NCBI GenBank assembly: GCA_964016885.1
Contig: OZ024744.1
Span: forward strand, 36,084,001-36,148,000
DNA from: Eledone cirrhosa
Lineage: Eukaryota
Direction: 5' to 3'
Length of the DNA: 64,000 nucleotides
Position 1 is the stretch's first letter; every line of letters starts with the position of its first letter. Shown here in pieces: positions 4,340 to 37,900 of the stretch. The notes beneath the pieces were generated by a model. The model made no database searches. It was not told the origin of the DNA and saw only the letters and a list, made by a program, of their open reading frames with translations. The position numbers and the translations under genes are program-made.

Positions 4340-5139
4340 AAGTATGTATACGTACATACATATATGTATACATATATGTATACAGACGTACAGTAGTATG
4401 TATATATATATACATACATCCACACACATATATATATGTACGTATGGATTCACTGAACATTTATTATAATGCTCGGTGTGTTTGTAAACAAACATTCCGA
4501 ATTAAGCCGTACAGTGTCTAGCAACCACACCGAGCATTATAATAAATGTTCGGTGAATCCATACGTACAGATATATATGTGTGCATGTATGTTATATATA
4601 TACATACTACTGTACGTCTGTATACATATATGTATCTACGTCTACATACTTATATTTAAGTAACAGCCGTACTAAGAGTGGGAAATGAAATTTCGTTTCA
4701 TTTTTTCTGTTTATCGTTTTCGGTACCCCGGCCGATTAACTCCTAGATATGCAAATTAGGCTGCTCAGCCGTTCATATGCATAAGGAAAGTATATACTTT
4801 CAGACGTTAAACCATCCGGCAGGAAGGTATACGTTGCTGACGATAGCTAATAAGCTTGAAACTAGTACAGCATTCCTTTGTCAGTGTTGAACAAACGAGC
4901 AACGATGGTTGCTGGACACTACGGCTTAATACGGGATGTTTGTTTACAAACACACTGAGCATTATAATAAATGTTCGGTGAATCCATACGTACATATATA
5001 TATATGTGTGCATGTATGTACATATATATACATACTACTGTGCGTCTGTATACATATATGTATGTACGTATACATACTTATATTTAAGTAACAGCCGTAC
5101 TAAGAGTGAGAAATGAAATTCGTTTCATTTTTTCTGTTT
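4340..5139. mobile_element. Family A retrozyme-like insert: inverted pair (antisense 4340-4526, sense 4527-5139, about 1.4 units)
   Basis: aagtaacagccg recurs at 4658 and 5086 (428-bp period). Contains an HHR, has (TA)n on both sides and no ORF. Confidence 0.8.
4831..4873 (+). ncRNA. Type I hammerhead ribozyme (family A)
   Basis: acgttg-CTGACGA-t-agct-aata-agct-t-GAA-ACTAGT-A-cagcat. Palindromic stem III; predicted cleavage after 4867. Confidence 0.8.
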
Positions 5140-5209
5140 CTATATATATATATATATATATATATATATATAATATAAGATCAAAAGATGGTTAAAAGAG
5201 TTCCATGTA

Positions 5210-5276
5210 TTTTATTATGCGCATTTCAAAAACAAATATCATCATGGGATGATACTTGCGTTCTCATCAGATAAAA
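5210..5276 (-). ncRNA. Type I hammerhead ribozyme in PLE terminal repeat
   Basis: ttttat-CTGATGA-long stem II-GAA-ATGCGCAT-A-ataaaa. Same family at 26981-27047 (-) and 27157-27225 (+). Confidence 0.8.
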
Positions 5277-6433
5277 TAGGGAGACATGATATGAAGTTTA
5301 AAAAACACTTTCGAGCAGTGAAGTGTTAAATCTACATATGAAAAATAAAATAAGATGGATATATGAGATTGGAAAAAAAAATAAGGATGGGGGAAGGAAA
5401 AGGTACGGAAGAGGAAGGAAGAAAAAAAGGATGACGGGGGAGGAGTATAAGAAGGAAGGTTGAGAGAGGAGGAGAAATGTGTGAGAGAGAGAGAGAGAGA
5501 GAGAGAGAGAGAGAGAGAGAGAGAGAGAGAGAGAGAGAGAGAGAGAGAGAGAGAGAGAGAGAGAGAGAGAGAGAGAGAGAGAGAGAGGGAGACGGAGAGA
5601 GAGCCTTTAATACTGAGAAACACTGTCTCACAGAGAGAAATGAAATAAACCGTTTAAGATAATACATAATTTGAAGAAAATTTTGAAATTAAAAGTTAAT
5701 GAGGTTTATGAATGGTGATGTTTATGATTAAAGAAAAAGGAATTAAGAATATTGAAGGGTTTAATAAGATGTGCGAATAGGAATTTATTAATATGTATTA
5801 TTAAAATAAAAATATTAAGGAGATAAGGTGAATGAAGAAGAAATTAAATGAATTATGAACTTAGAGGATTTAGTTAGGGTCTAATTTTGTGTCTATGTAT
5901 TGTAATATGAAAAAGTAAATAATAGGTTTAATACGAAGAAAATAAAGTAAATAATAGGTTTAATACGAAGAAAATAAAGTAAATAATAGGTTTAATACGA
6001 AGAAAATAAAGTAAATAAGAGGTTTAATACGAAGAAAATAAAGAAGAAAATTTAAGGAAGAAAAAGTATATAACGTCAAAAAAATATGTTTACAAAATTT
6101 AGTAATGGTAATATTAGTATATATTAAAAATATAGTTTGTATGGCGAAGAATATAAGGAAAATGCTATAGTGAGTAATAATATGAATTAAGAAGTAATTG
6201 AGAAGCAAAAATTACAGATTAAAGATTAGAAATTAAAAAGGAAAAAAGGAAAAAAGGAAAAAAGGAAAAAAGGAAAAAAGGATAAAAAAGAAGAAAAATA
6301 GGGGACCGCTAACGACATAGAATGGGTAAATTGTATAATATAATATACTGAAATAAGGTAGAAAGATGGGTATATATGTAAAAGATATAAACGCGTTTGA
6401 AAAAAGATTTTAAACTAATTAGGTAGTGAGATA

Positions 6434-7550
6434 TTAGCTGTATACTTTATGGAAAGTTCTATGGGATTTATGCAAGCAGAGCGAAAATAAATCCGTACGT
6501 CTATTTATTATAGAATTAAAATTAGAGATAATGGTAAATTTCTCGGCTAGGCAGAGATTACATGTTCTGGATAAGAAAGAATTCCGGTAAGGAGAGGCGT
6601 TGCAAAACTTCCTCCAAGAAATGTTGTAGTTAATATTTTTGTCTTTTAAGGACCATATGAGTTCTGAGGGCGCCGTGTTAGTTCTTTTAAGTTGGTATTT
6701 AAAAGAGGAATTGTGATTATAAAATCGTGCTTTAAAGGAAGTGGAAGTGAAACCAAAATAGGTAAAAGAATTAGTACCAGTTATAACCTTACATTCATAC
6801 ACTAAATTGTTATCAAGACATTGGTTATTAAGAGGACATTTAGTTCTAACAGGGCAATTACAATTACGATTAGAGAAATTACCAGAGTTATTAACAAGTG
6901 ACCTAGTATTATTGAAAGAAGGAATTGGATTTGAGAAGTTATTTACGATAGGTGCTAAAGTTTCCTGATTTAGATTGGTGTTTTGAACATTCGACAAAGT
7001 TACGTTTGACGTCGTATTTAAATTTACTGAATCTAGCCTAGAGTTAACATTGACGTCGGGTTTACTATTACTATTATTATGACGCTCAGTGTTGGATAGA
7101 TATAATTTATTATTTAATATTTTATTATTTTGTTTAAAGATAATGTTAGAGATATTGGAAGTGGTGGAATAAGAGAATTGGATTGTATGTTTGTTAAAGA
7201 TCTCATATAGATATGCGAGGAAGGGAAGCATTTATCTAAGGCCCTAAAAAATAGTTTAGGAATATTACTAGTAATAGATAGAGAAAAAGGAGCGTTGTAC
7301 AAATCATATTTTTGTATCTAAGTTATTGGAATGTTCATGACTAACTATTTTACTATAAGTCCTTCGATGATTAGTTTCTTTACTGTATTTAATTTTGTCA
7401 GGATAACCGGCTTTGGGAAGCGAATTATTATAATAATTGGCATTAGCGTCGAAGATAACTTTATTAGAGGATAGATATGAGATTCTTTTTTCAACATTAG
7501 TGACTATAGCATTTTTAACGTTAATAGGGTGGTTAGATTTAAAATTAACA
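6434..7550 (-). pseudogene. PLE RT-thumb/GIY-YIG endonuclease remnant (stops and frameshift)
   Basis: Motifs as listed for the element; split between ORFs 7114-7302 and 6434-7231. Confidence 0.85.
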
Positions 7551-35662: not shown

Positions 35663-35793
35663 ATATATATATATATGTATATATATATATATATATTTAT
35701 ATATATATATATATATATATATATATATATATATATATATATATATATATATATATATATATATATATATACACACATATATATATATATATA

Positions 35794-37555
35794 TAAGTTG
35801 TAATAAAATGAAAACGAAATTTCATTTCTTACTCTTAGTACGGCACTTACTTAAATATAAGTATGTATGTATACGTACATACATATATGTATACAGACGT
35901 ACAGTAGCATGCATATATATATATATATATATATATAATATATATATATATACATATATACATACAGGTACACATACATATATGTACGTATTAGTTTAGC
36001 GGACGCTTATTATAACGCCCGCTTTGTTCGTTTGTAAACAAACTGAACAGCCTGAATTTATGCCGTACGGTGTTAAGGCAACCACGTCACCTTTTTGTTC
36101 AACACTGACACAGGAACGATGTACTAGTTTCAAGATTGTTAGCTATCATCAGCACCGTATACCCTTCTGCCAGATGGTTGAACGTTCGAAAATATATACT
36201 TTCCTTATGAAAATTAACGGCTGAGCAGCCTAATTTGCATATGGAGTGAGTTCGGCCAGGCGTACCGAGAACGATAAGTTGTAATAAATTGAAAACGAAA
36301 TTTCATTTCTCACTCTTAGTACGGCACTTAATTAAATGTAAATATGTATGTATACGTACATACATATATGTATACAGACGTACAGTAGCATGCATATATA
36401 TATATATATATATATATATATATATATATACATATATACATACAGGTACACATACATATATGTACGTATTAGTTTAGCGGACGCTTATTATAACGCCCGC
36501 TTTGTTCGTTTCATTTTATTACAACTTATCGTTCTCGGTACGCCTGGCCGAACTCACTCGATATGCAAATTAGGCTGCTCAGCCGTTAATTTTCATAAAG
36601 AAAGTATATACTTTCGAACGTTCAACCATCTGGCAGAAGGGTATACGGTGCTGATGATAGCTAACAAGCTTGAAACTAGTAGATCGTTCCTGTGTCAGTG
36701 TTGAACAAAAAGGTGACGTGGTTGCCTTAACACCGTACGGCATAAATTCAGGCTGTTCAGTTTGTTTACAAACGAACAAAGCGGGCGTTATAATAAGCGT
36801 CCGCTAAACTGATACGTACATATATGTATGTGTACCTGTATGTATATATGTATATATATATATGTATATATATATATATATATATATATATATATATATA
36901 TGTATATATATATATATATATATATATATATATATATATATATATATATATATATGAAATATATATATATATATATATATATATATATATATATATATAT
37001 ATATATATATGCATGCTACTGTACGTCTGTATACATATATGTATGTACGTATACATACATACTTACATTGAAGTAAGTGCCGTACTAAGAGTGAGAAATG
37101 GAATTTCGTTTTCATTTTATTACAACTTATCGTCCTCGGTACGCCTCGCCGAACTCACTCGATATGCAAATTAGGCTGCTCAGCCGTTAATTTTCATAAG
37201 GAAAATATATACTTTCGAACGTTCAACCATCTGGCAGAAGGGTATACGGTGCTGATGATCGCTAACAAGCTTGAAACTAGTACATCGTTCCTGTGTCAGT
37301 GTTGAACAAAAAGTTGACGTGGTTGCCTTAACACCGTACGGCATAAATTCAGGCTGTTCAGTTTGTTTACAAACGAACAAAGCGGGCGTTATAATAAGCG
37401 TCCGCTAAACTGATACGTACATATATGTATGTGTACCTGTATGTATATATGTATATATATATATATATATATATATATATATATATATATATATGCATGC
37501 TACTGTACGTCTGTATACATATATGTATGTACGTATACATACATACTTACATTTA
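35794..37555. mobile_element. Family A (subfamily 3) inverted pair of tandem arrays; HHRs at 36116-36158 (-), 36645-36687 (+) and 37246-37288 (+)
   Basis: acggtg-CTGATGA...GAA-ACTAGT-A-catcgt. Arms are joined at the microhomology ttcgttt (~36504-36510). Confidence 0.85.
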
Positions 37556-37571
37556 TATATATATATATATA

Positions 37572-37900
37572 TACTGTAGAGTAAAGCATGTCCAGAGAAT
37601 TATTTGATAATATATATACATCATCTCTACTCCCAATCACCATAATTAACCACACAATTAGATCAGTCTATATGGTTAATTAATTTCCACGTGCTGTTGA
37701 AATGTTGGGTAAATATTCTATAGAGGTTGCGCGCGAAGACGCCGCAATGGCGTATTTATTTGCTGTTTCTTCATAGATGCCTTTTATTCTTATAGCCTGG
37801 TCTAATTGATTTTTTGTGTGGTTAATTATGTTGATTGGGGGTTGAGATGATGTATATATATTATCAAATAATTCTCTGGACATGCTTTACTCTGCAGTAT
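37572..37900. repeat. Imperfect inverted repeat insert between (TA)n tracts
   Basis: 37572-37670 is approximately the reverse complement of 37791-37900. No convincing HHR found. Confidence 0.7.

Follow-up and report, generated by a model that had tools for sequence, protein, structure and literature searches.

In the genome of Eledone cirrhosa (3.0 Gb), inverted pairs of Penelope-like elements (PLEs) were found to join one arm that ends in a tail to one arm that stops short of it, and we judge the chance somewhat better than even that such pairs arose when the element's own endonuclease (EN)-reverse transcriptase (RT) carried out concerted twin priming on one RNA. The pairs were characterized in a stretch of 64,000 nucleotides (OZ024744.1, positions 36,084,001 to 36,148,000), here called the window, which has a GC content of 35.5% and is rich in (TA)n tracts. 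From position 4340 to 37555 of the window, these tracts alternate with fragments of about 10 repeat families, labeled A to J for this analysis. The 14 inserts under study, which are PLEs or hammerhead-bearing short repeats of PLE type, lie mostly between (TA)n tracts (Table 1). Inverted pairs were located by comparing the window with itself, and a pair was called tail-out when its left arm is minus-sense and its right arm plus-sense, with the RNA 3' ends facing outward. A first-pass annotation had described the 14 inserts as inverted pairs of this polarity; all 14 were recovered, and all are tail-out.

Within each family, the arms stop at two discrete sites, tailless or tailed, that lie 25 to 160 nt apart (in family A, at unit position 61 or 120; in family D, separated by about 66 nt). 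In the window, each of the 14 pairs combines one tailed with one tailless arm, tail status having been checked against other genomic copies, some by eye. The same combination was found in 33 of the 34 family-A pairs with both ends classed (P = 2e-9 against 50:50), a set that includes one window pair, and no family-A pair was tailless on both sides (0/34). These 34 pairs come from 52 transitions examined, 18 of which were not classed because a locus edge, a TA tract, or a rearrangement hides an end. For family D, exactly one tail was present in 26 of 26 position-ordered pairs and in 10 of 12 further pairs, and the partner was tailless in all 22 visible partners of 41 tail-anchored loci (by eye). 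Lists of D end motifs, which overlap these sets and were used for neighbor relations only, contained 20 pairs with mixed ends and 1 tail-out pair with tails on both sides, and none that lacked a tail on both sides; two tailless D ends within 10 kb of each other were not found among 100 listed. The genome-wide totals of these motifs (2,699 tailed and 897 tailless) are not comparable, as the tail motif is common to more subfamilies. One tail was also found in 7 of 9 adjacent pairs of family B, in 9 of 10 pairs of family C (by eye; plus arms were tailed by query design), and in 2 of 2 pairs each of families H and J.

Some features of the ends themselves were also recorded. Family B (L112, L114, L124, and others) has tails of about 45 and about 58 nt and hence three end sites. 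At D tailed ends (window 22355 to 22365; L247), the tail end is often separated from the TA tract by a variable CA run, which is absent from the element's own continuation and may stem from slippage or repeat addition at priming. Minimum free energy predictions for families A, C, and D and for the pair at 7750 place the tailless site within the loop of a short AU-rich hairpin or at the loop's edge; such a loop was not clear in family B. No RNA fold of the tail was common to the nine families compared (z scores of -3.3 to +0.6).

The polarity of 12 of the 14 window pairs was read from hammerhead cores or open reading frames (ORFs) within the window. A strict hammerhead scan gave 9 matches, compared with 0 to 1 in 20 shuffles, and ORF fragments with RT and GIY-YIG motifs were found at 18858 to 20093 (minus), 20082 to 20381 (plus), and 23277 to 24680 (plus); the A-type pairs and those at 27280 and 31719 were oriented by a loose hammerhead core motif only. 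The pairs at 28327 and 33427, with no hammerhead core or ORF match inside the window, were oriented from genomic copies elsewhere that have a same-sense PLE ORF upstream. An Rfam scan of the window showed no hammerhead in the listed 150 of 384 sub-threshold matches (low-complexity, microRNA type), and a Pfam search of the PLE ORFs gave no RT or GIY-YIG match and no hit at all.

Tail-out pairs also dominated strongly in families A and D when the polarity count that the first-pass annotation had envisaged genome-wide was made on samples, namely, the first 100 of 10,354 exact motif matches for family A and the first 100 of 1,530 motif matches for family D, ordered by position and spanning part of one chromosome. 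Opposite-strand neighbors of family A were tail-out rather than tail-in at ratios of 14:0 within 1 kb, 14:1 within 5 kb, and 14:2 within 10 kb, and those of family D at 26:1 within 10 kb. The sole tail-in D case is a perfect palindrome centered on a TA tract, flank included, and is probably a DNA-level inverted duplication. In this 460-bp, 100% palindrome (L257:1423-1882), two tailed D arms stand tail to tail around the TA tract, each still accompanied by its short inverted partner and by flanking sequence of about 14 nt. Across 77 merged family-A loci, 52 minus-to-plus switches were counted, along with 5 plus-to-minus switches within blocks; by coordinates, 4 of these 5 fall between neighboring inserts and the fifth reflects the overlap of an internal palindrome. 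Where different families met tail-in, TA lay in between in 4 of 4 cases.

We infer every enzymatic step of the proposed mechanism from what the sequence displays, namely, polarity, end sites, haplotype, non-nesting, junctions, and TA flanks. In this scheme, a (TA)n tract would be cleaved on both strands by the EN, and the two resulting DNA ends would prime the RT on the same RNA, one at each of the two fixed sites; an asymmetric, probably dimeric complex presumably keeps each end at its site. An RT that began at the tail site would either stop at the tailless site, giving a tail-only arm, or displace the other cDNA and continue, a step that requires an RT without RNase H, as we take the PLE RT to be. 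Tail-only arms that start at the tailless site were found in three families (M39, L113, and L323) and look as if tail-primed RT had met the other RT. Each RT would stop early or run off the RNA 5' end, producing uneven arms or near-perfect hairpins, and host end-joining would seal the two cDNA ends. The multi-unit arms of family A would derive from circular or multimeric RNA.

Arm lengths bear on whether the second arm could instead be a copy of the first. In family A, the tailless arm extended outside the tailed arm in 15 of 29 pairs, and neither arm was nested in 8 of 29 (tandem units allowed for; 4 pairs with a junction in TA were left out). Arm lengths were uncorrelated (rho = -0.20, P = 0.29), and inner ends were no closer than under a uniform distribution (Kolmogorov-Smirnov test, P = 0.49). 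Among 32 resolved D junctions, the tailless arm was more than 16 nt longer in 10 and the tailed arm in 8, with 14 within 16 nt; the asymmetric pairs include some without any arm difference (L196, L197). By our own reading of arm coordinates, 8 of the 14 window pairs are non-nested. Simple fold-back is disfavored because a fold-back copy must lie inside its template, and the tailless arm often does not. An elaborated version, which we hold to be unlikely, has the tail-site cDNA copy itself as far as the tailless site, after which the palindrome loses its center during or soon after integration. It accounts for the single tail, the shared haplotype described below, the near-perfect hairpins (14/32 in D), and the youth of long perfect palindromes, and palindromic tips were so read by Arkhipova 2013 (PMC3846280), where the published form is antisense self-priming (here and below, papers are cited for the passages drawn on). 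Yet it needs a secondary deletion in 15/29 A and 10/32 D pairs, up to 2.6 to 4 kb from the template arm and in some pairs without any arm divergence, and it predicts neither tail-only arms from the tailless site nor unpaired tailless arms. Moreover, 4 near-perfect D hairpins have a tailless arm that exceeds the tailed one in length, and the tailless site is an RT start on RNA in vitro (PMC11167929). The tips of the 14 near-perfect D hairpins cluster 50 to 100 nt upstream of the hammerhead cleavage site in 11 cases and lie at scattered sites 2.6 to 3.8 kb inside in 3. Two RTs running off a single RNA at a shared 5' end would be expected to yield such inner ends, coincident within 16 nt.

The arms of one insert share a haplotype. 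Those of family A differed at 12 of 1,441 common polymorphic sites, compared with 40,874 of 161,416 sites (25%) between inserts, and insert-private alleles were present in both arms 18 times (10 inserts) and in one arm only 81 times. Family D was too uniform for this test (3 shared private alleles in 11 pairs), and its arms share private microsatellite variants in L192, L195, L196, and L197 (by eye). In L043 and other A arrays, units of one arm are identical in private variants, internal TA length included, as would be expected from rolling-circle copying of one RNA. A dimer that primes at two sites, with each protomer on its own RNA and the arms matching through a source locus dominant in the cell, is a doubtful alternative, rated a little below fold-back with central deletion. 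The uncorrelated arm lengths of family A and the mixed-family joins at L012, L119, and L061 fit it, but it leaves unexplained why inner ends coincide within 4 to 16 nt at scattered internal sites (L192, L194, L231) and why private alleles occur in both arms when many haplotypes are young. The one-tail rule, the shared haplotype, and the longer tailless arms thus disfavor both simple fold-back and independent priming from a mixed RNA pool.

Central junctions were analyzed in 44 of 52 family-A cases, 8 being skipped for a gap of more than 40 nt, mostly in or near the internal TA tract. Of these junctions, 36 were overlapping or blunt and 8 had inserts, some copied from the unit. Overlaps of at least 2 nt were found in 28 of 36, compared with 28% of 260 simulated joins (P = 1e-9), and the median overlap was 2 nt (three ambiguous long overlaps excluded). 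In family D, 34 of 39 junctions were analyzed (9 blunt, 17 overlapping, 8 with inserts); overlaps of at least 2 nt occurred in 14 of 26, compared with 27% of 1,500 simulated joins (P = 0.003), and the excess was not significant at thresholds of at least 1 nt (P = 0.13) and at least 3 nt (P = 0.10). The earlier claim that the arms are joined at central microhomologies therefore holds in that overlap exceeds the simulated null, but the overlaps are short, weaker in D, and not obligatory. Three of its four motifs were assessed: tagtac at 30894 was confirmed at 5 to 6 nt, the overlap at 20084 is present at 6 nt (TTTTAA) rather than 7, and ttcgttt at 36504 comes to 3 nt against its own haplotype and reaches 7 nt only with a one-base slip. 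Short microhomology or inserts at joints resemble host end-joining, and the A and D junctions look like host end-joining without a strict need for homology.

Families D and B encode putative enzymes that could make the cut. D copy L195 has a 699-amino-acid open frame with YRDD, VVY, and YVG motifs, and family B has YVDD, VVY, and YIG motifs, assigned in both cases to RT and GIY-YIG by motif only. The D unit has a period of 4,284 nt, is in tandem in L193 and L195, and carries a hammerhead at each unit end. RWK, DKT, a CxCx5C linker, CxxC, and CxH, with no CX2-5CxxC, were found in L195; this is the signature of the Hydra clade, which inserts almost always into (TA)n and tends to be shorter than 3 kb (PMC8557442). 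By motif, family D is thus Hydra-like, although its 4,284-nt unit with a long microsatellite-rich untranslated region (UTR) misses the length tendency. The family-B linker CTNRNCIIC fits CX2-5CxxC before GIY-YIG and is Neptune-type by this motif alone. Further features of endonuclease-bearing (EN+) PLEs were found, namely, an optional tail at one end and a pseudo-long terminal repeat (pLTR) or partial tandem with a hammerhead; D also has (TA)n targets and a canonical hammerhead. Each of the non-coding tandem units of family A has a type I hammerhead core (a loose motif that failed the strict stem filter), and the family, as predicted from sequence, has the layout of a non-LTR retrozyme (tandem units with a predicted hammerhead).

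The first-pass annotation had proposed that both ends of a break in (TA)n were extended separately by PLE RT and then joined, as patching of fragile TA tracts. Extension from two ends with central joining is most likely right, given the non-nested tailless arms (15/29 in A, 10/32 in D) and microhomology above the null. Separate extension was not supported, since the ends are tightly coupled in tail status and haplotype, and neither was patching, in view of the encoding of intact GIY-YIG endonucleases with TA-associated linkers and of a purified PLE protein that itself cuts and extends both strands (PMC11167929). EN-independent patching of a spontaneous break is accordingly rated improbable. 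(TA)n tracts may be fragile, and in nearly all 39 D pairs both outer ends lie in TA (by eye), in some cases beyond a few bases of CA or other sequence; base pairing of TA ends with TA-like stretches at the start sites is possible, and EN-minus PLEs exist (PMC8557442). Separate priming, however, should give about half like-ended pairs, compared with 1/34 in A and 0/26 in D, the autonomous families encode GIY-YIG with TA-associated linkers, and long interspersed nuclear element (LINE) fragments seen in the window are not arranged as local inverted pairs. TA fragility may have contributed, but an element-made cut is the favored reading, as start sites that are both fixed and paired would be difficult to obtain from random breakage.

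Raw reads of other samples showed the family-A strand-switch joints, and the junction at 20084 was unspanned. Of the 15 best-supported read joints shown for the family-A unit (165 more not shown), 12 were strand switches; one at library cut sites was excluded, and 10 of the remaining 11 were found in all three raw-read runs, with 3 to 4 shared letters at 6 of 11. These joints record a strand switch and not its polarity. An assembly artefact from fold-back reads is very improbable: four other runs contained no read or contig across the 20084 junction, but outer ends and flanks differ in a fixed way, and the joints just described recur in all three other samples.

Several observations weigh against concerted twin priming on one RNA. 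Doubly tailed pairs occur in 1/34 A, 2/12 further D (both multi-unit), 2/9 B (with two different tail lengths), and 1/10 C (by eye), with 1 in the end-motif lists, and partnerless copies are common: only 20 of 37 tailless D ends have a tailed partner within 10 kb. Mixed-family joins without a TA spacer were found at L012 (C with A, both tailed) and L119 (B with an A-type tail), and at L061 an A arm runs into another PLE's ORF within one arm. Such joins need two RNAs or later nested insertion, and they suggest use of several RNAs by one RT. A shared haplotype could also result from gene conversion or from a single dominant source locus. Three long near-perfect D palindromes are among the youngest copies (0 to 0.05% arm difference), as decay of a fold-back product would predict. 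Frangieh 2024 (PMC11167929) reports start sites that are alike on the top and bottom strands, pooled over molecules; as cited, these data neither show nor exclude pairing within one event. No empty sites were seen and no target-site duplications were resolved within TA; one 13-nt candidate with a mismatch was noted at L111 (by eye).

Table 1. Inverted pairs and unpaired arms between window positions 4340 and 37555
Positions	Family or type	Left arm	Right arm	Hammerhead (strand)	Junction and other features
4340-5140	A-type	4340-4527, minus, tailless	4526-5140, plus, tailed	core 4837 (+)	overlap ~2 nt
7749-8376		7749-8161, minus, long, tailless	8161-8376, plus, short, 70-nt tail	8007 (-)	arms not nested
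17538-22363	D, autonomous PLE with Hydra-clade motifs	17538-20089, minus, tailless; RT-GIY-YIG ORF fragment 18858-20093; ~600 nt lost internally between TA tracts	20084-22363, plus, tailed	17628 (-), 22204 (+)	6-nt overlap TTTTAA; not nested
22786-25212	B, autonomous PLE, Neptune-type linker	22786-23282, minus, short, tailed	23280-25212, plus, tailless; ORF 23277-24680		3-nt overlap; not nested
25245-25640	C	tailless	tail 25-30 nt	25411 (-), left arm	near-perfect hairpin
26356-26746	E	minus, tailless	plus, tailed	26451 (-), left arm
26853-27264	F	26853-27096, minus, 88-nt tail	27096-27264, plus, tailless	27041 (-), 27164 (+)
27280-27443	G	27280-27392, minus, ~70-nt tail	plus, tailless, extends further 5'	core 27396 (+)
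28294-30166	H	28294-28992, minus, tailless	from 28990, plus, tailed (outer end approximate)
30506-31170	A-type	to 30899, minus, long, tailless	from 30894, plus, short, tailed		overlap tagtac; not nested
31655-31873	I	64-nt tail	tailless	core 31807 (+)	near-perfect hairpin, 1-nt tip; tail-like sequence adjoins TA in L247 (by eye)
33427-34568	J	33427-34269, minus, long, tailless	34274-34568, plus, short, 160-nt tail		arms not nested
34622-35667	A-type	minus, tailed, tandem	from ~35367, plus, tailless	cores 34918 (-), 35421 (+)	extra bases inserted at junction
35794-37555	A	to 36511, minus, tailed	from 36509, plus, two units, tailless		433-nt tandem hammerhead unit with internal (TA)n; 3-nt overlap; neither arm nested
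5173-7626 (-)	F end, unpaired			5270	broken PLE ORF 6437-7627, Hydra-type CxCx5C linker
9140-9642 (-)	A-type arm, unpaired				tailless
31211-31470 (-)	E arm, unpaired				tailed

At least three unpaired arms in the same range (5173 to 7626, 9140 to 9642, and 31211 to 31470) were absent from the first-pass list. The tail of the pair at 7749 adjoins TA in copy L152 as well (by eye). The arms of the pair listed there at 26360 are only 77% identical, and this pair is old or its arms come from different subfamilies. A genome search with family F gave no match, common words being skipped by the search. Three readings of individual inserts were dropped: genomic copies show one pair, not two nested pairs, at 17539 and place the tail of 28327 on the right rather than the left, and 22848 is no exception to the one-tail rule, as its left flank is the tail. 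Another family-G pair, with a tailless left arm, a tailed right arm, and TA tracts on both sides, lies outside this range at 56226 to 56345. A lone plus-strand broken PLE ORF at 57787 to 59940 is D-related and has long N/T-rich low-complexity stretches; the UTR after it ends at a TA tract. An unpaired LINE-type RT fragment, which we take to be RTE/CR1-like, lies between TA tracts at 8311 to 9015 (minus), and further LINE fragments lie at about 15100 to 15720, 41100 to 42430, 45300 to 46870, and 50450 to 51990. A 154-nt two-copy tandem repeat and long (TAG)n/(AGT)n arrays were found at 61860 to 62175, 49331 to 49741, and 53185 to 53507.

The tail-out layout and the TA preference are already published; what is new is the pairing rule with a shared template and non-nesting. 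Inverted pLTRs, rightly attributed to PLEs by the first-pass annotation, are a published feature (PMC8557442, PMC3846280, PMC2377424). Craig 2021 (PMC8557442) describes an adjacent inverted truncated copy, a tail often at one end only, and (TA)n targeting with linker motifs tied to it, the PLE cycle being left undefined. Arkhipova 2013 (PMC3846280) gives head-to-head as the commonest form and proposes antisense self-priming, and inverted termini are reported by Schostak 2008 (PMC2377424) and Goubert 2022 (PMC8969392). The EN+ PLEs described by Craig, Arkhipova, and Schostak thus share with the present pairs an inverted truncated copy at the 5' end (head-to-head), partial tandems, pLTR hammerheads, an often one-ended tail, and, for Naiad, Neptune, and Hydra, (TA)n targets (PMC8557442). 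Here, in contrast, the one-tail rule has been counted and is near-strict across several families, tails measure 25 to 160 nt rather than 30 to 40, and arms are of the same haplotype and often non-nested. The explanations offered in those passages are antisense self-priming for the inversion and EN-mediated resolution for the tail. Strict tailed/tailless pairing or PLE twin priming was not found in the titles, abstract openings, and passages searched, which covered few subscription journals.

For Poseidon (PAc) in vitro, Frangieh 2024 (PMC11167929) found that the purified PLE protein, a predicted dimer, cuts and extends both strands at an AT-rich target, with two RT start sites that bound the tail. 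Hammerhead cleavage was dispensable there, and D inner ends here are not at the cleavage site. The passages of its main text drawn on link the two sites neither to the two DNA ends of one event nor to inverted pairs; Poseidon also belongs to another clade, and the family-D tail is upstream of the ORF, not inside it. In LINE-1 (L1) twin priming (PMC2246262; bioRxiv 2024.12.14.628481; bioRxiv 2024.08.27.596794), both target ends prime on one RNA, as proposed here, with the 3'-most ends outward (PMC2246262; bioRxiv 2024.08.27.596794), joining uses microcomplementarity, and an internal-duplication variant is known. In L1, however, the internal position of the second primer is a matter of chance and the arms generally lack overlap, whereas the sites here are fixed and close and the arms overlap along most of their length; the proposed mechanism is a kind of twin priming distinct from that of L1. 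Insertions of telomerase RNA and EN-independent L1 insertions at breaks (PMC2246262; PMC1920257) also have an RT extend a DNA end with pairing of a few nucleotides; they use pre-existing breaks, whereas fixed paired starts and an encoded EN point here to an element-made cut. Like the non-LTR retrozymes (Cervera 2014, PMC4209133; Li 2026, bioRxiv 10.64898/2026.07.22.740005), family A is a tandem repeat without coding sequence whose units each contain a type I hammerhead core. Unlike them, its arrays occur as tail-out pairs whose ends in (TA)n are tailed or tailless in the PLE manner, an arrangement pointing to insertion by PLE-style priming.

The origin of PLE inverted and tailed ends is called unresolved in the literature (PMC8557442, PMC11167929, PMC3846280), and the present counts turn a descriptive habit into a rule with predictions: one start site per DNA end, one RNA, and RNA-dependent arms. 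The existing in vitro Poseidon system can test such predictions. The many thousands of copies in TA tracts (10,354 exact matches for one motif), many of them palindromic, matter for assembly and repeat annotation. PLE RTs are related to telomerase, and two-ended priming bears on how such RTs engage DNA ends. We give an even chance to the broader proposition that programmed twin priming, with one complex, one RNA, and two fixed sites, is the standard integration route of EN-bearing PLEs. If so, the inverted pLTR, the one-sided tail, and solo hairpin inserts would all have a single mechanistic explanation, and tandem hammerhead repeats (retrozymes) would be inserted by the same PLE machinery.

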